Source: Eledone cirrhosa (Eukaryota). From it: 64,000 nucleotides of DNA. Numbering within the stretch: position 1 is the stretch's first letter; every line of letters begins with the position of its first letter. The notes under the pieces were generated by a model. It was not told the DNA's origin. It searched no databases and saw only the letters and a program-made list of their open reading frames with translations. The position numbers and the translations under genes are program-made. Positions 7,445-61,137 of the stretch are shown in pieces. Where the stretch lies: contig OZ024749.1 in the NCBI GenBank assembly GCA_964016885.1, positions 18,476,001-18,540,000 on the forward strand, written 5' to 3'.

Positions 7445-8470
7445 AATATATATATATAAATATAACTTTGAAATGTTTTGGCCAGTATTGGCCCAGGCCA
7501 TGTCTAACTTAATAGCACCACCTGGCGAAGTCTTTCAATTCAGGATTTGGGCACCATGGCCCATTCGAGAAGAGAATTACTGTTTGCGGAGACATATCCG
7601 GGTGTGGGTGGTTTGTCCGGGATTACTTGGAGGAATTTGTCCAAAGGTCCAAAGACTTCTTGAATTTTGTGTGGTCAGTTTCTGTTTTGACGTGTCCTGG
7701 TGTGATGTTGAAGAGAGCAGGGCCGATTGAGGTGAAATAATTGTGCCGTATGTTGTTATGAGTTGCGATTTAGATTTTTGAATGGGACGGATAGCACGGG
7801 GCCCAAGCCTTGGGTGTATCTTGAACAGTGGCAGTGATGATGGAACATTTTCCACATCATGCCGATAATATAACGCTCACGGCGACGTTGGAGTGAGTAA
7901 AGTTTCAGGTTTTCTAGTCGACCCCAGTAGTCAAGGTCTGACATGCCATCTATCTTTTTCGTGATTGCCCTTTGAGGAGCTTCAAGTTTCATGATACTTT
8001 GTTTCGTGTGGGGAGACCACAGTGGACAACAGTATTCAAGGTGTGGTCGGGCAAAAGTAGAGAAGAGAAGGATAATGGTGTGGGAATCTCTCGACTGGAA
8101 GGTTCTGAGGATCCAGGAACACATTCTGCGGGCCATGTCAACTTTGCTGCTTATATGCGTGGCCCAGCTTATGTTGATGTCCACGGTTACTCCCAAGTCT
8201 CTGATGTTGTTAGATGCCACGAGAGTTTCCCCGGAGGGAAGGGAGTACGGGAGTTTCAGAGCATCCTCTTTTCCAAAGTGGATCAGTTCGAATTTGCCTT
8301 CGTTCAGTAACATGTTGTTCTTTTCCGCCCATTGGGTAACAGCCAGTAGGTCTGACTGAAGGCTTATCCGGTCATCCACGCCATTGACTACCTTTTGGAG
8401 CTTGGAATCATCAGCGAAAATGTTAATGTTGCTGTTTGATGATGTCAGTGATGTCATTAATATAGATGAT
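7445..8470 (-). mobile_element. 5'-truncated non-LTR retrotransposon (CR1/L2-like LINE): RT C-terminus and 3'UTR
   Basis: ORF 7756..8457 contains FADDSKL, LQSDL..W, RDLGVTVD, RPHLEYCCPLWSP and SLQRRRER, typical of CR1-group RT C-termini; the 3' end abuts (TA)n. Confidence 0.85.
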
Positions 8471-8578
8471 GAAATATATATATAAAATATATATATAATA
8501 TATATATATTTATATATATATATTTATATATTTATATATATATATATTCATGTATGTTATATATATATATATATAAAT

Positions 8579-9038: not shown

Positions 9039-9420
9039 TAAATATATATATATATAAATATATAAATATATATATACAAATATATATATATATAAATATA
9101 TAAATATATATATACAAATATATATATATATATAAATATATAAATATAAATATATATATAAATATATAAATATATAAATATATATATACAAATATATATA
9201 TATATATATAAATATATAAATATAAATATATATATAAATATATAAATATTAATATATATATAAATATATATATATAAATATATATATATATAAATATATA
9301 AATATATATATATAAATATATATATATATTTATATATATAAATATATATATATACATATAAATATATAAATATATATATATAAATATATATATATAAATA
9401 TATATATATATAAATATATA

Positions 9421-9898: not shown

Positions 9899-9954
9899 AA
9901 TATATATATATAAATATAAATATATATATAAATATATAAATATTAATATATATA
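9039..9954. repeat. Interrupted (TA)n array with ~694-bp higher-order periodicity
   Basis: The rare marker TATAAATATTAATAT occurs near 9243 and near 9935, and the pattern starting at 9251 recurs starting at 13696. Confidence 0.75.
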
Positions 9955-10487
9955 TAAATGTAAGTATGCATGTATTCGTACATACATATATGTATACAGA
10001 CGTACAGTAGTATGCATATATATATATATATATACATATATATATACATATGCATACAGGTACACATACATATATGCACGTATCAGTTTAGCGGCGCTTA
10101 TTATAACGTCGCTTTGTTCGTTTGTAAACAAACTGAACAGCCTGAATTTATGCCATACGGTGTTAAGGCAACCACGTCACCTTTTTGTTCAACACTGACA
10201 CAGGAACGATGTACTAGTTTCAAGCTTGTTAGCTATCATCAGCACCGTTTACCCATCTGCCAGATAGTTGAACGTTCGAAAGTATATACTTTCCTTATGA
10301 AAATTAACGGCTGAGCAGCCTAATTTGCATATTGAGTGAGTTAAATCGGTCAGGCATACCGAAAACGATAAATTGAAACAAAATGAAAACGAAATTTCAT
10401 TTCTCACTCTTAGTATGGCACTTACTTAAATGTAAGTATGCATGTATACGTACATACATATATGTATACAGACGTACAGTAGTATGC

Positions 10488-10518
<31 letters not shown>

Positions 10519-13134
10519 TATATACATATGCATACAGGTACACATACATATATGCACGTATCAGTTTAGCGGCGCTTATTATAACGTCGCTTTGTTCGTT
10601 TGTAAACAAACTGAACAGCCTGAATTTATGCCATACGGTGTTAAGGCAACCACGTCACCTTTTTGTTCAACACTGACACAGGAACGATGTACTAGTTTCA
10701 AGCTTGTTAGCTATCATCAGCACCGTTTACCCATCTGCCAGATAGTTGAACGTTCGAAAGTATATACTTTCCTTATGAAAATTAACGGCTGAGCAGCCTA
10801 ATTTGCATATTGAGTGAGTTAAATCGGTCAGGCATACCGAAAACGATAAATTGAAACAAAATGAAAACGAAATTTCATTTCTCACTCTTAGTATGGCACT
10901 TACTTAAATGTAAGTATGCATGTATACGTACATACATATATGTATACAGACGTACAGTAGTATGCATATATATATATATATATACATATATATATACATA
11001 TGCATACAGGTACACATACATATATGCACGTATCAGTTTAGCGGCGCTTATTATAACGTCGCTTTGTTCGTTTGTAAACAAACTGAACAGCCTGAATTTA
11101 TGCCATACGGTGTTAAGGCAACCACGTCACCTTTTTGTTCAACACTGACACAGGAACGATGTACTAGTTTCAAGCTTGTTAGCTATCATCAGCACCGTTT
11201 ACCCATCTGCCAGATAGTTGAACGTTCGAAAGTATATACTTTCCTTATGAAAATTAACGGCTGAGCAGCCTAATTTGCATATTGAGTGAGTTAAATCGGT
11301 CAGGCATACCGAAAACGATAAATTGAAACAAAATGAAAACGAAATTTCATTTCTCACTCTTAGTATGGCACTTACTTAAATGTAAGTATGCATGTATACG
11401 TACATACATATATGTATACAGACGTACAGTAGTATGCATATATATATATATATACATATATATATACATATGCATACAGGTACACATACATATATGCACG
11501 TATCAGTTTAGCGGCGCTTATTATAACGTCGCTTTGTTCGTTTGTAAACAAACTGAACAGCCTGAATTTATGCCATACGGTGTTAAGGCAACCACGTCAC
11601 CTTTTTGTTCAACACTGACACAGGAACGATGTACTAGTTTCAAGCTTGTTAGCTATCATCAGCACCGTTTACCCATCTGCCAGATAGTTGAACGTTCGAA
11701 AGTATATACTTTCCTTATGAAAATTAACGGCTGAGCAGCCTAATTTGCATATTGAGTGAGTTAAATCGGTCAGGCATACCGAAAACGATAAATTGAAACA
11801 AAATGAAAACGAAATTTCATTTCTCACTCTTAGTATGGCACTTACTTAAATGTAAGTATGCATGTATACGTACATACATATATGTATACAGACGTACAGT
11901 AGTATGCATATATATATATATATATACATATATATATACATATGCATACAGGTACACATACATATATGCACGTATCAGTTTAGCGGCGCTTATTATAACG
12001 TCGCTTTGTTCGTTTGTAAACAAACTGAACAGCCTGAATTTATGCCATACGGTGTTAAGGCAACCACGTCACCTTTTTGTTCAACACTGACACAGGAACA
12101 ATGTACTAGTTTCAAGCTTGTTAGCTATCATCAGCACCGTTTACCCATCTGCCAGATAGTTGAACGTTCGAAAGTATATACTTTCCTTATGAAAATTAAC
12201 GGCTGAGCAGCCTAATTTGCATATTGAGTGAGTTAAATCGGTCAGGCATACCGAAAACGATAAATTGAAACAAAATGAAAACGAAATTTCATTTCTCACT
12301 CTTAGTATGGCACTTACTTAAATGTAAGTATGCATGTATACGTACATACATATATGTATACAGACGTACAGTAGTATGCATATATATATATATATATACA
12401 TATATATATACATATGCATACAGGTACACATACATATATGCACGTATCAGTTTAGCGGCGCTTATTATAACGTCGCTTTGTTCGTTTGTAAACAAACTGA
12501 ACAGCCTGAATTTATGCCATACGGTGTTAAGGCAACCACGTCACCTTTTTGTTCAACACTGACACAGGAACGATGTACTAGTTTCAAGCTTGTTAGCTAT
12601 CATCAGCACCGTTTACCCATCTGCCAGATAGTTGAACGTTCGAAAGTATATACTTTCCTTATGAAAATTAACGGCTGAGCAGCCTAATTTGCATATTGAG
12701 TGAGTTAAATCGGTCAGGCATACCGAAAACGATAAATTGAAATAAAATGAAAACGAAATTTCATTTCTCACTCTTAGTATGGCACTTACTTAAATGTAAG
12801 TATGCATGTATACGTACATACATATATGTATACAGACGTACAGTAGTATGCATATATATATATATATATATATACATATATATATACATATGCATACAGG
12901 TACACATACATATATGCACGTATTAGTTTAGCGGCGCTTATTATAACGTCGCTTTGTTCGTTTGTAAACAAACTGAACAGCCTGAATTTATGCCATACGG
13001 TGTTAAGGCAACCACGTCACCTTTTTGTTCAACACTGACACAGGAACGATGTACTAGTTTCAAGCTTGTTAGCTATCATAAGCACCGTTTATACATCTGC
13101 CAGATAGTTGAACGTTCGAAAGTATATACTTTCC
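9955..13134 (-). mobile_element. R1: tandem array of ~472-bp HHR-containing units (~6.7 units), retrozyme-like non-autonomous element
   Basis: Unit starts (TAAATG) at 9955, 10427, 10905, 11377, 11847, 12319 and 12791. Length variation lies in the internal (TA)n. There is one minus-strand HHR per unit (first at 10207-10247). Confidence 0.9.
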
Positions 13135-13697
13135 ATATATGTATGTACGTATACATGCATACTTACATTTAAGTAAGTGCCATACTAAGAGTGAGAAATG
13201 AAATTTCGTTTTCATTTTGTTTCAATTTATCGTTTTCGGTATGCCTGACCGATTTAACTCACTCAATATGCAAATTAGGCTGCTCAGCCGTTAATTTTCA
13301 TAAGGAAAGTATATACTTTCGAACGTTCAACTATCTGGCAGATGGGTAAACGGTGCTGATGATAGCTAACAAGCTTGAAACTAGTACATCGTTCCTGTGT
13401 CAGTGTTGAACAAAAAGGTGACGTGGTTGCCTTAACACCGTATGGCATAAATTCAGGCTGTTCAGTTTGTTTACAAACGAACAAAGCGACGTTATAATAA
13501 GCGCCGCTAAACTGATACGTGCATATATGTATGTGTACCTGTATGCATATGTATATATATATGTATATATATATATATATATGCATACTACTGTACGTCT
13601 GTATACATATATGTATGTACGTATACATGCATACTTACATTTAAGTAAGTGCCATACTAAGAGTGAGAAATGAAATTTCGTTTTCATTTTGTTTCAA
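13135..13697 (+). mobile_element. R1 inverted arm (~1.2 units) ending at the canonical 3' end
   Basis: Reverse complement of the array unit; ends GAAATGAAATTTCGTTTTCATTTTGTTTCAA followed by (TA)n. Confidence 0.9.
13351..13391 (+). ncRNA. Minimal type-I hammerhead ribozyme (R1)
   Basis: CGGTG-CTGATGA-TAGCTAACAAGCTT-GAAA-CTAG-TA-CATCG: complete catalytic core, palindromic stem III, GUA site. Confidence 0.88.
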
Positions 13698-13865
13698 TAT
13701 ATATATAAATATATATATATAAATATATATATATATAAATATATAAATATATATATATAAATATATATATATATTTATATATATAAATATATATATATAT
13801 ATATAAATATATAAATATATATATATAAATATATATATATAAATATATATATATATAAATATATA

Positions 13866-31401: not shown

Positions 31402-33891
31402 CTAGCTAACAGGTTTAAAGTAGAAGAAAGAGCTTAATATTTGGTGGGGGCAAGAGGAAAATATCTCAGACTTTCTATTTAGTAGAGGGCATTTAGCAAA
31501 TATAATAGAGTGGGATTCGGCAAGGCATAGGTTACATACTCTATTATGAGGAGTATATGGATGGGATTTAGCAACCTGCCGCCAAGTAAGTGTGTAATGT
31601 GTTCGTGCATTTTTTAAATTATGGACGTACGCTGCCAAGGAGGTGGAGTTCCTCAGTTTATTATGTCTAAAAGTGCATTGGTGAGAGTTAAACCTGGTCT
31701 TAAATGGGGTGGAGGTTGATCCTATATAGGTTTTAGTGGACGCCGTAGTTACCACATCACACGCATAAACTATGTTTCTAACAAGGCAGAAACCATTCAG
31801 GGGGCAGCCTGAAGCCCTTCTACAGTTACAACCTCTGGTGATGCTATTCTCAGAATGATCACCACTTGTGTTTCTGCCCACTCTGTCCACTACCGTGTTT
31901 TCCCCTAGGCTTAGGTTGTCCAGGCCTTCCTTTATTTTCTTATTATTAGTAATGGCCAGATGAGAGGCCAGATTTTGGGTTGTAGAATACGAAAGTTTAA
32001 CAACATTCTTATTGAGGATAGAGTGGTACCTATTACCAGGAGGGAAGTTCCTTTCTAACACAGAGAAGAAGGCCCTAGGAATATTTATAGCCACTTCAGA
32101 ATTAAAAGGGGGGTTGAAGTATGTATTCAATCTTCTTCTATTCTTTTTATTCTTTCTATTTCCATCACTATTATTAGCATTATTATTTCTACGGTTACTA
32201 TGCTCACCTAGTCTATGCGGGGAGCTGCGAGGCCTACCATTGCTATTACTTAGACTAATGGTGCCCTGCTGGTTCATTACACCGGCATTTAGAAACCTCC
32301 CACTCGCGACACCTCTATTGCTATTACTTAGACTAATGGTGCCCTGCTGCTTCATTCCACCGGCATTTAGAACCCTCCCATTCGCGACACCTCCATTACC
32401 AATGGACATATTATGTGTTATAACAACACTGGTAGAGCTACTATTAGGACTATTATTTCCCTGGGTGTAATACAATTTGTCCCTAAAGCCGGATCTAGCT
32501 AAGGCATCATTATAGTAATCAGCCTGCGAGTCAAACGCCTCCTCACTATGTGAGAGTGAACTTATTCTGTTAGATACGCCCTTCAGTATACCGCTGATGA
32601 CCGACCTAGGGTGGTTAGAGTTGGTATTCACGTAAGTCAGCAATTCATTAGGCTTATGGTACGGTGTGTACGTATGGTTATCCAAGTCCAATGTAACATC
32701 CAGGAAGTTCACAGTTCTATCATTTATATCCATAGTAATGGATAGGTTAAATGTTTTAAAAAAACTATGCAGCTTTTTCCTAATGCGCACTATATTATAC
32801 TTACTAGTATCTATGGAGAGTAGGGCGTCATCCCGGTACAACCCGCCCCTAAGGAAAGGGAAGTTACTATGCAGTTCATTGAGGAGGTATAGCCCAACTA
32901 AGTCGGTGACTTGAGCAGAGTCACTCGACCCCATAGTAATGTCAAAATTATCAGGTGTGTTTTTTCTCGTCCATAGATTATCCTCAAACATGATAATGGT
33001 TTTACGTGCAGCGAGAACAATATCTATCTGTGGCCTTGTAATTGCCCCCCTCTGCATGGCTAGGATGAGGGCCTTATTGAGGATAATAGGAGATATAGAT
33101 GTATAATAAGCATCAATATCAAATTGGATGAATTTGAGTGAGTCACGACCACAATCCGTAGAGAACCACCTAATGACCTCACTAGTGTTACCCCAAAGCT
33201 CAAGGAAAGTTTTTTCTCTAACCAGGGGAATAACGCCATCCAAGATTCCCTTACTAATAATCCCCAGGTCAGACTTGGAGGGGCAGATAAGCCTAACTGA
33301 GGGTCTGCTAATAAAATCTTCCTTGTGGTCCTTGAGGGTGAATCTAGGCTGCTTGGGGTAATAAGGCTGAGTGTGTTTATCCAGACCTAGTTTTACCACT
33401 ATGTTATACCCCTCCAGATTAATGTTATCTAAATTACTCTGCGTTGTTTTTTTGTAGTTCCTATGTAGTTCATTATAAATGAAGCCTCGATAGGTTTTAT
33501 AATCCATACTATATAAGTTTTTAGTTTTGTCAGAGGGGACCAGAATGGATTTATTATCCCTAAAGTCCCTAACGATTGAACTTAGTTTACTCTGAAATTT
33601 ATTGGTACATCTAGATTTTTTATATCTAATATTCCTAACAAGGGATAATAGCTCACTTTCGAAGTTATCCAACAGGCTATTATGCGGGGGGCTCCTATAG
33701 GTCTTAAATCCATAATTATTAAAACTACGCCTCTCTTCAGGGCTATCATACTTCTTATCAAAATGGAACGCACGCCACCGAACACGTTTTACGAAAGAGT
33801 TTATGCTAGTTATCAGTGATTTCTCATATGAGATTTTAGGAGGGGTGGGAATATTCTTCAAGGAAATGGGTAAGTATGTCTTTGTTAGCAT
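31402..33891 (-). CDS. Intact PLE polyprotein: reverse transcriptase + GIY-YIG endonuclease (Naiad-like), ~829 aa from the ATG at 33891
   Basis: Uninterrupted ORF with [85 protein letters not shown] and LLNRKSEIFSSCPH. Confidence 0.93.
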   Translation of the reverse strand: MLTKTYLPISLKNIPTPPKISYEKSLITSINSFVKRVRWRAFHFDKKYDSPEERRSFNNYGFKTYRSPPHNSLLDNFESELLSLVRNIRYKKSRCTNKFQSKLSSIVRDFRDNKSILVPSDKTKNLYSMDYKTYRGFIYNELHRNYKKTTQSNLDNINLEGYNIVVKLGLDKHTQPYYPKQPRFTLKDHKEDFISRPSVRLICPSKSDLGIISKGILDGVIPLVREKTFLELWGNTSEVIRWFSTDCGRDSLKFIQFDIDAYYTSISPIILNKALILAMQRGAITRPQIDIVLAARKTIIMFEDNLWTRKNTPDNFDITMGSSDSAQVTDLVGLYLLNELHSNFPFLRGGLYRDDALLSIDTSKYNIVRIRKKLHSFFKTFNLSITMDINDRTVNFLDVTLDLDNHTYTPYHKPNELLTYVNTNSNHPRSVISGILKGVSNRISSLSHSEEAFDSQADYYNDALARSGFRDKLYYTQGNNSPNSSSTSVVITHNMSIGNGGVANGRVLNAGGMKQQGTISLSNSNRGVASGRFLNAGVMNQQGTISLSNSNGRPRSSPHRLGEHSNRRNNNANNSDGNRKNKKNRRRLNTYFNPPFNSEVAINIPRAFFSVLERNFPPGNRYHSILNKNVVKLSYSTTQNLASHLAITNNKKIKEGLDNLSLGENTVVDRVGRNTSGDHSENSITRGCNCRRASGCPLNGFCLVRNIVYACDVVTTASTKTYIGSTSTPFKTRFNSHQCTFRHNKLRNSTSLAAYVHNLKNARTHYTLTWRQVAKSHPYTPHNRVCNLCLAESHSIIFAKCPLLNRKSEIFSSCPHQILSSFFYFKPVS

Positions 33892-34690
33892 ACTGCCTGA
33901 TAATATACAAGGACACAAATCCACGTATATCAAAGTTTAAGCTCAACCAGTGGGAGCCGTATAGTATACTAGGGAGAGGATCAGGGGTGTATAACACTCC
34001 ACTTATCCAGCAGGCAGTATAAAGTTAGCTCGATGTCTGAGGACAGAGCCGTGATATAATAAATAACAAAGAACGCCTATAGCATATGCATATCTTTACT
34101 TGCTAACATTGTTTCATCCGCACTATAAGTGGCTCTCATCAGAGCATAAAGGTTAATTACATACCATACAAGCAATAACAAATCCAAGACATTGAAGAAT
34201 GAAAAATAATAGAAGATAAAGGATATTAAGGAAGTAAAAGTAAAAATAAGAATAAAAATAAAAATAAAAATAAAAATAAAATAATAAAATAAACAATGAA
34301 AAATAAGGGGTGCTATCAGTCACAGTTGGGCGGGGTGCTGTCAACATATAGTTACATACAAGCATACACATGGATAAGAGAACAGACAAGAGTAGATAAG
34401 ATAGATAGGATTAGGTAAGAGTAGGTAAAACATAGGTGAAAAACAGACTTATAATACATATAAGAAAATATAAAGAAATATATAACAAACTTACATATAG
34501 AATATAAAATATACAGATAATAGTGATACAGGGTAAGGAATGAAATAAAATAATATAAAATTAAAATAAAAATTATATAAAATAGAACATAGTATAATAT
34601 AATCATAAAATAAGATAAAATAAGGTAAACTAAAATAAAATAAAATAGACTAAAGTAAAATAATATAATATAAGATATAATTAAATGTAA

Positions 34691-49406: not shown

Positions 49407-52400
49407 ATGTTCTGTTGTCTACGAAAAACCATAACATCTCGACAACTACGCTTCATAAAACTGTGCACCACTTCTAGAATCTACACCGACGTTAGAAGAT
49501 TACAACATCAATACCGACGTTAGAAGATTACAACTCACCAAAAAACAAGCAGATAGGCTAAAACGAACTTTAATTCTAAACATAAAAAAGAAGATCTATA
49601 GAGAATTAAGTCATCAAGAAAAACTAAAGCGTAACCTAATACAAGAAATAGCTAAAATCACCACACCAGCAGAAAAACTAATATTTATAAGCCTTATACG
49701 CCCCGAAGAACAGTACATTACTCAAGAATGTGATAAGCACTTTAACAGAAAACTAAAGTGGCTTAAACAGGCAAAGCTAAATCGGGATACTATAGAGTAT
49801 ACCAATAGATATCCCGACAAAATTGACGGTATCAACATGGTCGACACCTCATTATCAGAAGAGTTCAACAACGAAAATACCAACATTTATGGAACACGGA
49901 AATAGATAATAATGAAATGTCTGTGTTACGTCTGCCACCCAAATTTGCGACATTCAAGAAGGTAAATATGATTAGTTGTCTGTCAGAAATAGAAAAATCA
50001 TTTACAAAACTACGCTGGACGATCAAAAACAAAAGCAACAATATACGCACACACATATACAACACACATCCCAACAACAACAGACACACAGACACAAACA
50101 ACAATAACAACAACAACAACAACAATAGCAACATACCCAGATACAATAACAACAGACACGCAGACACAAACAACAATAACAACACACACAACAACGATAA
50201 CACACACGGAGACAACAATAACAACAACACACACATCAACAACAACAATAGCAACATACCCAGATACAACAACAACAGACACGCAGACACAAACAACAAT
50301 AACAACACACACAACAACGATAACACACACACACACGGAGACAACAACAACACACATCAACAACAACACACATCAACAACAACAACACACACGCATTCAA
50401 TGCCTGTCACCACCACCACAATCTTAACAAACACACAGACACAGAAAACAAGTAATGACAGTAGCACAGAAATCAGTGAAATAAGAGAAAGTAATAGGAT
50501 TAAAAGGAAAAGGAGATGGGAGACTAAGGACAAAGAGAATAACCAAGACGAACACACAGACACACAAAAAATAGGGTAGATAACAACATTGAGCCAGTGG
50601 AAAGAGACAGGAGTAATTATGAGAGACATAGAAACAACCATGAGGCTGTTGGTGGAAATAGAAATAGAAACAACACAACTAACAATAATAATAGCACTAG
50701 TACACATAAAGCAGCAGCCTGGAACTCTCCGTTTTATAACCCCTCCGATAAATCATTCGACCTACGACGAGTCCACGCCACGACTTTGCCATTTAACAAA
50801 CGCACGCAGTTGCCGTCGCAGGTCGATGAACAAACAGAAGCACAATTTAGTGTAGCTAAATCCGAACTTAGAAATATTATAGAACAGTATAGCAAGAAGC
50901 ATAATTGAATAGAAGCCCAGCAACTGGGAGAAGTATCTGCAAATGGCTTGCGTAAGCTCATGCAGCGCTCGCGTAATGGAGAGATAGCATGTTTTCCAAC
51001 AGACAAGTCTGGCAGAATGTCGGTTGACAGCCTGCCAAACTACATCCAGGCAATGCAACCCCACATCACTAACACAAGAGAGGTAACACCACAGGAGCAT
51101 GAGGATAGAGAAAAAGCCCTCGATGCCCATATGGTGATGTGGACGAATATAATGCAGCCCAACAAAAGGACTGCCAACAACTTCCAGGCCTGGAACAATG
51201 ACGTGCCGGCGTTGTATGGGCTTCGAAAAGACCATAAAACGGGCTGGGACCCTGTCGCGGGATCACCAACACGGCCAGTCTGTGGGGCTAACATTGCTAG
51301 TAACTACAGACTGTCCTACTTCCTCTCCCTGATCATACGCCCCATCATTGAGATGTCCCCAGATGTGTGTGACAGCACGGAGGACCTCCTCAGCAGAATC
51401 GGCGCGGGTAACCGATCTGGGGACCTAACAAACTGCATAATAGGCAGTATGCATGTTGTGTCCCTGTATCCATCTATTGACGTGGATTTTGCTGTGGAGA
51501 AATGCGTAGAAATGATCAGCAAGAGCAAGGTTGAGTTCCGTGGGATTGATACCAGTGAGCTGGGACTTTTACTTAAGCTTACCCATAGTAATAGTTACCT
51601 AGACACTTATGACCTTAGCAACCTGTGCCCTACAAGACCAGCAAGAGGCAGACCACCTACCATTACCTCAATGGCCAAGAAAACCCACACAGATAGATGG
51701 AACGGGTGGACCAGAGCCATACGGACACCCGAAAACCACGATGAACTGAAGAAAATGATTGCACATGCGGTAGGGGCCAGCATAAAATTAACCCTTAAGG
51801 AACATATGTTCAAATTTAATGGTAAAACATATGCCCAAGAGGAAGGAGCAGCCATTGGTGTTAGCATTGCAGGCGACACAGCTAACTTATTCATGGTATG
51901 GTGGGACAGTAGACTTAAACAAAAACTTAATGAACAATTAGAAGACAGCTTAACCCTGATAATGTACTCCCGCTACGTAGATGATATAAACATCGTAGTT
52001 AAGACACCCCCACTAAAGAACAGTCAGGAACTAGAGAAAAACACAATGGAAAGCATCCAGCAAATAGCAAACTCCATCCACCAGAGCATTAGAGTTACTA
52101 TAGACTACCCAAGTAGACACCCCAACCATCGATTACCTGTACTAGACACAGAGCTCTGGTTAGATACCATTAACAACCAAAAACAAATCCTCCATTCCAA
52201 TTATGCCAAACCCATGACTTCCAAACATCTGATCCACCGAAACTCGGCCATTTCGGACCATACCAAAATCAACATACTGATTGCGGATTTGGTACGGGTG
52301 ATGAGAAATGTGTCCCGCATGTGCAACCCCGAAGAACTAGAGAGACACATACAACACTTCATCCACCGTATGCAGTTCTCTGGCTACAATCAGAGAGATA

Positions 52401-53097
52401 GAATCAGAGTGTATAAAGGAGCCAGAACCAAATGGGAAAACATGGTAAATAATGACATAAATGGGACCTGCCCCTTGTATAGGAGCAAATTTTGGAATAG
52501 AATAGAAAGAACTAGGAACAAGGCCAATAGAATAAACTCATGGTATGATAGCAATAAATACCAGAGTGTAATGTTCATCAATACAACCCCTAGAGGCGAA
52601 CTAGCCGACAAATTTAGAAGGGCCCTAAATAAACATAATCTCAATATTAAGATAGTAGAAAGACCTGGTACCTCCGTAAAAACACTTATTAGCAAGACAT
52701 ACCCGTTCCAAAGACCCTCATGTATAGATAAGAAATGTATAACCTGTAAAATAAGCCCCCATATTAACTGTAAAACTAGAAATGTAAAACTAGATGTACT
52801 GAAGGACAATGTAGAAACAAAAATATAGTGTACATAGGTGAGACAGCTCGTAGTATAGGGGAACGAATAAATGAACACTGGCGAGACCTCCAAGATAATA
52901 AAGAATCATCTGTGCTCTACCAACATGCTAAGATAGAACACAGGGGTAGATTAGAGAGCATAGAAATAAAAATAGAATCCACACACAGAAAAGACGCAAT
53001 GTTTAGGCAAATTACAGAGGCAGTAAGCATAAAAGAATTAAAACCAAAATTAAATAGAAAATATGAGTGGAACAGCAACATCACAACTTACAATTAA
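49407..53097 (+). pseudogene. Family D RT + GIY-YIG ORF, disrupted
   Basis: N-terminal QLRFIKLC, then PTDKSGR, YGLRKDHK, RPVCGA, SLYPSI, QEEGAAIG, YSRYVDD, CIDKKCITC and YIGETARSIGERINEH. Broken by a 28-bp duplication (~49485-49535), a frameshift near 50570, TGA at 50906 and an indel near 52787. Confidence 0.88.
50055..50395 (+). repeat. Asn/Thr/His-coding AAC-rich repeat with ~123-bp internal duplication inside ORF D
   Basis: NSNIPRYNNNRHADTNNNNNTHNNDNTH occurs twice. Confidence 0.85.
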
Positions 53098-54356: not shown

Positions 54357-54407
54357 TGTGCCGTACTAAGAGTGAGAAATGAAATTTCGTTTCATTCTAT
54401 TCCATTT
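54357..54407 (+). mobile_element. ~50-bp 3'-terminal fragment of an R1-like element
   Basis: GTGCCGTACTAAGAGTGAGAAATGAAATTTCGTTTCATT matches 13649-13690 and lies within (TA)n. Confidence 0.8.
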
Positions 54408-54423
54408 ATATATATATAAATAT

Positions 54424-59654: not shown

Positions 59655-61121
59655 ATAAAAACAAATAACGAAACGAAATTAAATTTCGCTTCGTTTGTAA
59701 CTCACTTTTGTATGACTGACGCTTAAACAATTAAGTTAAAAAAATTACATCTACATATGCATACTGAAATACTAGTGTGTATATGAATACACACACGTAT
59801 ACATATGTATATGTAACAAGTCTTTCACTGGTTGCTTTACTGTGAGCACCCAGCTATTCTGTATGTAAACACACAGACAAACCGGTTTTTAGAGTCATAC
59901 TGGTTTTTGAGGGAACACCTTCCCTCTATTCTCCAGAAAGCCAGACAAGGAATATTGAACTAATTTCGTTGTTGTTACAACTCATCAGCAATATTTACCT
60001 ATCTACCGGCCCTTCTGGAGAATTGTAAAAGCACATATCGTTATATGTTTTTTCTATGAAAATTAGTAGTGGGCAGACTAATTTGCATAGAGTGTGAGTA
60101 CGCACCGGTTCAGCGGAGACGATAAAAACAAATAACGAAACGAAATTAAATTTCGCTTCGTTTGTAACTCACTTTTGTATGACTGACGCTTAAACAATTA
60201 AGTTAAAAAAATTACATCTACATATGCATACTGAAATACTAGTGTGTATATGAATACACACACGTATACATATGTATATGTAACAAGTCTTTCACTGGTT
60301 GCTTTACTGTGAGCACCCAGCTATTCTGTATGTAAACACACAGACAAACCGGTTTTTAGAGTCATACTGGTTTTTGAGGGACACCTTCCCTCTATTCTCC
60401 AGAAAGCCAGACAAGGAATATTGAATTAGTTTCGTTGTTGTTACAACTCATCAGCAATATTTACCTATCTACCGGCCCTTCTGACTCTAAAAACCGGTTT
60501 GTCTGTGTGTTTACATACAGAATAGCTGGGTGCTCACAGTAAAGCAACCAGTGAAAGACTTGTTACATATACATATGTATACGTGTGTGTATTCATATAC
60601 ACACTAGTATTTCAGTATGCATATGTAGATGTAATTTTTTTAACTTAATTGTTTAAGCGTCAGTCATACAAAAGTGAGTTACAAACGAAGCGAAATTTAA
60701 TTTCGTTTCGTTATTTGTTTTTATCGTCTCCGCTGAACCGGTGCGTACTCACACTCTATGCAAATTAGTCTGCCCACTACTAATTTTCATAGAAAAAGCA
60801 TATAACGATATGTGCTTTTACAATTCTCCAGAAGGGCCGGTAGATAGGTAAATATTGCAGATGAGTTGTAACAACAACGAAACTAGTTCAATATTCCTTG
60901 TCTGGCTTTCTGGAGAATAGAGGGAAGGTGTTCCCTCAAAAACCAGTATGACTCTAAAAACCGGTTTGTCTGTGTGTTTACATACAGAATAGCTGGGTGC
61001 TCACAGTAAAGCAACCAGTGAAAGACTTGTTACATATACATATGTATACGTGTGTGTATTCATATACACACTAGTATTTCAGTATGCATATGTAGATGTA
61101 ATTTTTTTAACTTAATTGTTT
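59655..61121. mobile_element. R2: second retrozyme-like family, ~467-bp unit; ~1.8 units minus-sense (59655-60483) plus ~1.4 units inverted (60484-61121)
   Basis: ACAAATAACG at 59661 and 60128. HHRs at 59951-59995 (-), 60417-60461 (-) and 60851-60895 (+), consensus AATATTG-CTGATGA-GTTGTAACAACAAC-GAAA-CTAG-TT-CAATATT. Confidence 0.88.
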
Positions 61122-61137
61122 ATATAAATATATATAT

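Follow-up and report, generated by a model that had tools for sequence, protein, structure and literature searches.

The window analysed here is a stretch of 64,000 nucleotides of DNA from Eledone cirrhosa (assembly GCA_964016885.1, contig OZ024749.1, positions 18,476,001 to 18,540,000 of the forward strand), and its positions 9945-13710 are occupied by R1, a multimer of a short non-coding unit with a hammerhead ribozyme motif. In this block Tandem Repeats Finder reported a tandem array (9955-13138) with a period of 472, 6.7 copies and 98% matches; the near-identical units of ~472 nt described in a first-pass annotation of the same DNA were thus borne out, as they were by unit alignment, and the head-to-head inverted arm of 1.2 units noticed there was recovered as well, joined 5'-to-5' with an overlap of 5 nt (Table 1). 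Array length and junctions rest on the assembly, the contigs of eight sequencing runs being short, with none of them spanning and the TA-rich part at the right-hand end (end B below) uncovered. The units are 470-478 bp long, the sole length difference being a TA run inside the unit, their GC content is ~35% and they have no long terminal repeat (LTR), which agrees with the low-GC tandem units of a few hundred bp known from retrozymes. No open reading frame (ORF) of 150 aa was found within the R1 units, and as an ORF with reverse transcriptase (RT) and GIY-YIG nuclease is absent, R1 is not an autonomous Penelope-like element (PLE). Outside the joint the array holds seven substitutions, each confined to one unit, and the short arm shows none in comparison to the array majority; it follows that the insertion is young and without a sign of later amplification. 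Three substitutions lie close together at 13080-13093, no more than 60 bp from the inner joint, whereas the remainder of the array has four; this cluster is possibly a trace of error-prone joining. Taken as a whole, R1 of the window is a real, young PLE-type insertion of a retrozyme, and at the level of its sequence it has the features of non-LTR retrozymes.

Table 1. Coordinates of the R1 insertion and of its parts in the window (TSD, target-site duplication)
Feature	Position	Strand	Remarks
Empty-site proxy (patterned TA block without element)	9212..9354	+	best of six TA fields compared
Left TSD copy	9945..9956	+	12 nt by family rule; at most 9945-9959
Long arm, 6.7 units	9957..13138	-	outer 3' end at site A (unit position ~261 from predicted cut); inner 5' end ~390
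Type I hammerhead, copy 1	10206..10248	-	motif and covariation with related units
Further intact long-arm hammerheads	10684-10726, 11156-11198, 11626-11668, 12098-12140, 12570-12612	-	
Seventh long-arm hammerhead, mutated core	13046..13088	-	CTGATGA to CTTATGA; adjoins inner joint
U6-like promoter block, long arm	starts 10330, 10808, 11280, 11750, 12222, 12694	-	
Inner 5'-to-5' joint of both arms	13134..13138	.	5-nt overlap
Short inverted arm, 1.2 units	13134..13698	+	inner 5' end ~224; outer 3' end at site B (~320)
U6-like promoter signature	13268..13315	+	ATGCAAATTAG, TATATA 42 nt later; predicted start near 13340
Short-arm type I hammerhead	13350..13392	+	predicted cut after GUA, 13386/13387
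59-nt 'tail' between priming sites A and B	13640..13698	+	folds are predictions
Right TSD copy	13696..13707	+	12 nt; at most to 13710

Each unit had been said to carry a minimal hammerhead. Seven of the eight cores are intact (six on the minus strand, one on the plus strand) and one is mutated, and the form is not a minimal one: helix I reads ACGGUG/CAUCGU, the CUGAUGA core is followed by a helix II of 4 bp with a U-U mismatch at its base and by GAAA, and helix III has 2 bp and a palindromic 2-nt loop, with the predicted cut after GUA. A helix III of 2 bp with a palindromic loop is the canonical metazoan type I hammerhead, reported to be active mainly as a dimer (PMC4209133). Since helix III has only 2 bp and its loop is palindromic, double-hammerhead cleavage is proposed, and the R1 motif would cleave itself in this double form within the multimer. 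The pairing was examined in 14 hand-picked variants of R1 and a related family, where 90.6% of cells were paired and 8 of 22 pairs had changed on both sides, against 33-48% pairing in slid controls; three of five covariation measures beat all 500 shuffles, while the remaining two failed (46 and 96 of 500). Few parts of the unit are as conserved as the core, which varies by 0.8% across copies. A ribozyme reading is weakened by the fact that the compensatory changes come mostly from one split between two families, that single-sequence folding is unremarkable (z -1.2 and -0.6), that the mismatch stands at the base of helix II, and that Rfam at its cut-offs gave no match for the R1 hammerhead.

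The mode of insertion was read mainly from the family. Copies were counted with exact patterns, as a plain DNA similarity search skips common words, and a 32-base core pattern gave 10,672 matches in the Eledone genome and none for the reversed control. The 53 loci that cover the first 100 core matches have, together with the window, 99 arms, and in 79 of these the end, counted in unit positions from the predicted cut, falls on site A (~261; n=33) or site B (~320; n=46) and is followed by (TA)n; most of the remaining 20 are fragments interrupted by long TA runs or later insertions. Among 30 head-to-head pairs 20 combine A with B and one A with A, an end being unassignable in nine, and the window copy has A on its left and B on its right. 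The same was observed at 80 further loci anchored on the A end, where the opposite end was B in 44, A in one and not found in 35, so that inverted copies with a scorable opposite end pair A with B in 44 of 45 cases. Genome-wide, with one pattern each, 2,701 junctions of the A end to TA stand against 13,369 read-through copies of site A. The inner 5' ends are scattered across the unit, most arms are ~0.5 kb long, and either arm or both may be multimeric (L140, L217). Site A lies in the loop of a predicted 7-bp hairpin and site B directly 3' of a second predicted hairpin, and both read AUUUA in the subfamily of the window copy. Two adjacent fixed 3' ends bounding a tail, an inverted 5'-truncated arm and an AT-rich target make up the footprint of PLE mobilisation. 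The genome-wide search returned what the first-pass annotation had asked to be tabulated, namely many copies with ends in (TA)n, inverted arms and measurable TSDs; its fixed 3' end is retained in so far as the ends are fixed, but there are two of them, 59 nt apart. A tail-only insertion of 55 bp from an older R1 subfamily, ending at site B, was also seen in a TA field of the window (54357-54410). Twin priming of the L1 type on one linear RNA was rejected, as the inner ends do not match the outer end of the other arm. Horizontal transfer was likewise set aside: sequencing runs labelled as other organisms hold R1 in 1-15 low-depth contigs (X3, X5, X6, X17) or in none (X7, X23), compared to 5,820 in X1, and this was read as trace carry-over.

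The target-site duplication could be sized in the same manner. At the locus of the window the 15-mer AATATATATATAAAT stands at 9945-9959 and again at 13696-13710, and it had been taken for a readable TSD of 15 bp; alone it is uninformative, with 63 occurrences in the window. The flanks match exactly over longer distances, 13696-13799 being equal to 9251-9354 (104 nt) and 9906-9959 to 9212-9265 (54 nt), and on these two matches a copy of the empty site is placed ~694 bp upstream; the host TA pattern therefore does resume in register after the block. The outer bases of the 15-mer (AAT of TAAAT at its end and AAT at its start) are the element's own A and B end sequences, as at loci in pure (TA)n. 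The duplication is thus real but measures ~12 bp (12 nt by the rule used for other copies, possible range 7-15), the longer figure having counted element bases. A TSD of 700 bp was dismissed, the right flank not ending like the left. For the family, those A ends were collected whose nearby TA sequence contains a marker G or C (55 matches, 50 examined, 25 with both ends), and the marker was duplicated at 19 of 25 loci, by 11 nt in two, 12 nt in nine, 13 nt in five and 19-24 nt in three periodic arrays, each size including 1-3 bases per side attributable either to the target or to the RNA. Dispersed multi-copy occurrence with a TSD of more than 4 bp is a retrozyme feature, and sizes of 11-13 nt were recorded at 16 of these 19 loci, L114 and L115 possibly being one duplicated insertion. 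With 39 unselected B ends as control the marker duplication rate was 6.9% (p 2e-8); a shuffle among the marker loci (mean 14.2, max 19/25) is not a control because the marker is common there by selection. Six of the 25 marker loci were scored without duplication and count to that extent against the model of insertion.

The target fields have peculiarities of their own. In all 12 TA fields of the window (6190-61620) AA breaks occur almost only on the plus strand, with 450 TAAAT against 29 ATTTA regardless of element orientation, and a single TA array that expanded and was filled by nested insertions may account for the whole window. A truncated LINE-like RT fragment (7465-8474) lies in the same TA field as R1, and similar fragments break the inner TA run of R1 at several loci. 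At L034 (2330-6080) and L133 the (TA)n target forms the centre of a palindrome, which hints at hairpin or cruciform DNA being cut; the palindromic flanks are read as targets that were there before the insertion.

In view of the two fixed ends and the duplications it can be said with high confidence that R1 of the window arose in one PLE-type insertion event, a conclusion that is supported far more by the footprint of the family than by the window locus alone. The first annotation of R1 as a non-LTR retrozyme inserted into (TA)n in one PLE-style event is in this way well supported, mostly through the family, with the size of the TSD and the single end corrected.

The nature of the copied RNA is the next question. 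As many as 65 of the 79 arms cross the predicted cut site, no arm has its 5' end 3 nt or less away from it, and of 347 crossings all but two (345) are seamless, without an indel. In 37 two-armed insertions with a multi-unit arm, which represent 21 haplotypes, 159 variant columns are fixed in both arms and 11 differ between arms (nine of them gap columns), whereas 296 are private to one unit. Moreover, 17 variants absent from other insertions (n=202) occur in every scored unit of the insertion to which they belong, and at L034 two such insertion-private variants are fixed across both arms, in 5 and 7 segments. Haplotypes shared by the arms and private variants fixed in every unit favour a one-unit bottleneck, that is a circle, over growth by unequal crossover. 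The complete model, one recent insertion in which a PLE reverse transcriptase primed from both DNA ends on a probably circular RNA of one unit, is accordingly held with moderate confidence, and the rolling-circle transcript of a ~472-nt circular RNA proposed at the outset is the best reading of the genomic footprint, although an uncut linear multimer fits too. Several observations count against the circle. An uncut multimer transcribed from a young, homogeneous master array would leave nearly the same footprint; 57 columns are partly shared between units, 32 of them in two old arrays, which indicates some exchange after insertion; and the A>G excess expected of RNA editing is weak (A>G 4 versus T>C 2 strictly, 13 versus 3 under a looser rule, p 0.02). 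In addition, uncut RNA was the main substrate of the anole PLE in vitro (PMC11167929), and only one of nine Xenopus dimers was cleaved in vitro (bioRxiv 10.64898/2026.07.22.740005).

These last points lead to the alternative in which the same double priming by a PLE used an uncut linear multimer from a long master array, the ribozyme being weak or acting later. Seamless crossings and the lack of 5' ends at the cut fit it equally, hammerhead mutants left insertion by the anole PLE in vitro unchanged (PMC11167929), and eight of nine Xenopus dimers stayed uncleaved (bioRxiv 10.64898/2026.07.22.740005). Nevertheless it is considered rather unlikely: linear copying would shorten lineages, arms being mostly ~0.5 kb, and still long arrays occur in several haplotypes (L034, L053, L140, L226, L229, L244); private variants fixed in all units need the one-unit bottleneck; and the ribozyme core is strongly conserved in comparison to most of the unit. 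A cut linear monomer, with the enzyme jumping repeatedly from its 5' end to a 3' end, would account for one haplotype per insertion, and the joins of R1 to other elements (L044, L047) suggest that jumps may happen; with all but two crossings free of indels and no arm stopping at the cut, it could be the usual template only if the jumps were flawless, and it is regarded as very improbable. Of similarly low standing, and largely refuted, is a short PLE-inserted copy later expanded as a minisatellite by unequal crossover. Local amplification has been discussed for such repeats (bioRxiv 10.64898/2026.07.22.740005), old arrays share variants between neighbouring units (L053, L159) and the TA flank has a 694-bp duplication; on the other side the substitutions of the window are each private to one unit while its short arm has the majority sequence throughout, the multimer can be either arm or both, and across the 37 insertions two substitution columns differ between arms against the 159 shared. 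Least probable of all is an error of assembly in the number of units or in the duplicated TA flank, for example filled and empty haplotypes joined in tandem, for although assembly is difficult across long TA fields and a palindrome and no array-spanning read was seen in the short contigs, the units carry private substitutions, many other loci repeat the design with arrays of different length, and an empty haplotype merged into the contig would serve as an empty site all the same.

A second retrozyme-like element of the window, R2 (59655-61122), has a 466-bp unit ~60% identical to that of R1, with the B end on its left and the A end on its right, an apparent 12-bp TSD, compensatory changes in the hammerhead and one core reading CAGAUGA; it also has the promoter block of R1. 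This block, common to both units, ends just before the ribozyme. Among the U6 genes of the same genome (15 loci fetched, 48 scored) five distinct upstream types were recognised, three of which carry ATGC(A/T)AAT(T/G)AG at -76 to -78 and TATA at -30. The same 11-mer is present in R1 and R2, where a TATA-like box follows 42 and 41 nt later, and this puts the predicted start of transcription (unit position 430) at the foot of an extended helix I. All nine occurrences of the 11-mer in the window fall within R1 or R2, it appeared in 160 of 200,000 unit shuffles, and it was not seen in six distinct U2 upstream regions of this genome. Variation from copy to copy amounts to 0.3-1.2% in the block, close to the value of the ribozyme core, against 3.3-6.6% in less constrained parts. 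Two features do not favour a plain U6 promoter: the distance from 11-mer to TATA is 41-42 nt instead of the 46-48 found in U6, and read-through units contain runs of T4-T7. T runs of this kind are expected to stop RNA polymerase III (Pol III). On balance the chance that the U6-like block serves as a working promoter of the unit is put, from its sequence, at slightly better than even. The 11-mer of the U6 genes (L084-L096) is octamer-like and lies near TATA, and in the tandem U6 cluster several copies have another repeat inserted right after TATA.

The life cycle which these data suggest may be outlined as follows. Transcription from the U6-like promoter within the unit would begin where the ribozyme stem has its foot and continue through the next unit; the multimer would cut itself at GUA, probably as a double hammerhead (PMC7229834, PMC4209133), and a host ligase would close the 472-nt monomer into a circle. 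A GIY-YIG nuclease, presumably from a PLE, would then cut both strands of (TA)n, and a stagger of ~12-13 nt is what the footprint shows. Priming would take place at A from one 3' end and at B from the other, with 1-5 nt paired to the RNA in each case, in agreement with the junctions, and each cDNA would then circle the template over a distance set by chance, which came to 6.7 and 1.2 turns in the window copy. Finally the two cDNA ends would be joined, as the back-to-back arms show mostly via an overlap of 0-6 nt.

Candidates for the enzyme are present nearby, since the window holds several TA-targeting PLE families with hammerheads. An ORF of 844 aa (31402-33936, minus strand) is placed in the Hydra clade by its RW, DKT and CxCx5C motifs and not by a tree, and its element has pseudo-LTRs (pLTRs) with hammerheads (29186, 34142, 36083) and an inverted arm. 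A protein search with this ORF returned 69 relatives at 32-46% identity, one of them from Argonauta; Pfam gave a sub-threshold RVT_1 match in one of seven ORFs, and positions 50909-52828 of the window are read from their motifs as a 'Neptune-like' PLE. The 3' end of the 844-aa PLE is scarce near R1 (3 of 173 loci). When R1 was aligned to five 3' regions of neighbouring or candidate PLEs, local alignment scores were 16-24, within the range of shuffles (max 26-36), compared to a score of 65 between R1 and R2. Duplications sized with G/C markers in the TA target (L261-L324) were mostly 14 bp for the Neptune-like family (5 of 12, 13 in two; 12 of 30 loci scorable), mostly 15 for the Hydra-type PLE-X (7 of 17; 17 of 30 scorable) and 15 for H3 (3 of 3; 3 of 4 scorable), counts which include 1-3 ambiguous bases per side; thus three PLE families leave 14-15 bp against 12-13 for R1. 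That R1 was integrated by a PLE like those beside it is supported in kind only, as no neighbour shares sequence with the unit and the three families leave longer TSDs; it tells against PLE mobilisation that no partner was found among the five 3' regions and three families compared.

Mixed insertions may give a hint of the partner. At L044 (2938-4335) and L047 (780-4415) R1 is joined in the same sense to the coding sequence of PLE-X, the PLE parts being 91% identical, and each locus has one end from each element, A plus B. Mixed joins at L061 and L260 also follow A+B, L153 is A+A and L081 is B+B, whereas the join at L235 looks nested with a deletion. At L061, L081, L153, L157, L259 and L260 the R1 arm stands head-to-head with the 3' arm of other TA-targeting families. 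PLE-X is taken only as a lead, because mixed joins may come from a deletion between neighbours as well as from a template switch. A far-reaching version of the model would make R1 a self-sufficient RNA-circle parasite of PLEs, with its own U6-like promoter, self-cutting restricted to the multimer and a stable 472-nt circle on which a dimeric PLE rolls from A and B at a 12-13-nt staggered break, the dimer also loading retrozyme RNA beside the mRNA of a Hydra-type PLE and so producing chimeras such as L044 and L047 that name the partner; this version is speculative and rather doubtful.

PLEs were proposed as drivers of retrozymes in 2020 (Cervera and de la Pena, PMC7229834), and in 2026 the link was argued from co-occurrence and pLTR homology (Li, Clavereau and Pollet, bioRxiv 10.64898/2026.07.22.740005). 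The claim that R1 is unusually direct evidence for it is less surprising in view of these proposals. Like the non-LTR retrozymes of coral, mussel and axolotl, R1 is built of tandem units that are non-coding, low in GC and provided with a single type I hammerhead; it is dispersed in thousands of copies, has TSDs of more than 4 bp and shares its genome with PLEs, and like axolotl HHR_Amex2 it has the U-U mismatch at the base of helix II (PMC7229834). An inverted second arm, two fixed ends and a measured TSD size are described for R1 and not in the text consulted of PMC7229834, PMC7761336 or the 2026 preprint, although supplements may differ. Metazoan retrozymes seem to be without promoters according to a review (PMC7761336), in contrast to the U6-like block of R1, and where the Xenopus families had 21 PLE matches (bioRxiv 10.64898/2026.07.22.740005), no homologous pLTR was found for R1 among the five 3' regions aligned.

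Endonuclease-bearing (EN+) PLEs resemble R1 in that their 5'-truncated arms stand both in tandem and inverted, two start sites bound a tail, the target is (TA)n and a hammerhead lies near the 3' end (PMC11167929, PMC8557442); R1 differs in having no ORF, a tail of 59 nt instead of 30-40 and many whole-unit repeats per arm. With purified protein of the anole PLE Poseidon both strands are cut and extended, and synthesis begins at two internal sites, the bounds of the genomic tail (Frangieh et al. 2024, PMC11167929), and tandem and inverted arms with a tail are reported from the Hydra, Neptune and Naiad clades (Craig et al. 2021, PMC8557442). According to the latter authors PLE TSDs in microsatellites are often not discernible, whereas those of R1 were measured. 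Chlamys elements of the MRC1 type are, like R1, non-coding PLE passengers with multi-copy head-to-tail insertions; they resemble their autonomous partner at the 3' end, whereas R1 has no matched partner, and canonical hammerheads were not found in most Chlamys elements, whereas R1 has one (PMC8557442). Newt satellite 2 and the schistosome hammerhead satellite are hammerhead repeats like R1 and have an internal promoter, as R1 putatively has, of small nuclear RNA (snRNA) type and read by RNA polymerase II in the newt and by Pol III in the schistosome (PMC2220036); the R1 block matches the U6 upstream regions of its genome and not those of U2.

For the return of retrozymes to the genome a circle and a PLE enzyme had been proposed, but in the papers compared not shown at the level of junctions. 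The R1 family supplies exact numbers: start sites 59 nt apart, one for each DNA end, a stagger of 12-13 bp, seamless copying over several turns and one haplotype per insertion. Target duplications of PLEs in microsatellites, thought to be unreadable, become measurable through G/C markers, and an internal promoter is indicated where the review (PMC7761336) gives none for retrozymes. As a purified PLE protein is available (PMC11167929), rolling-circle target-primed reverse transcription becomes directly testable at the bench.

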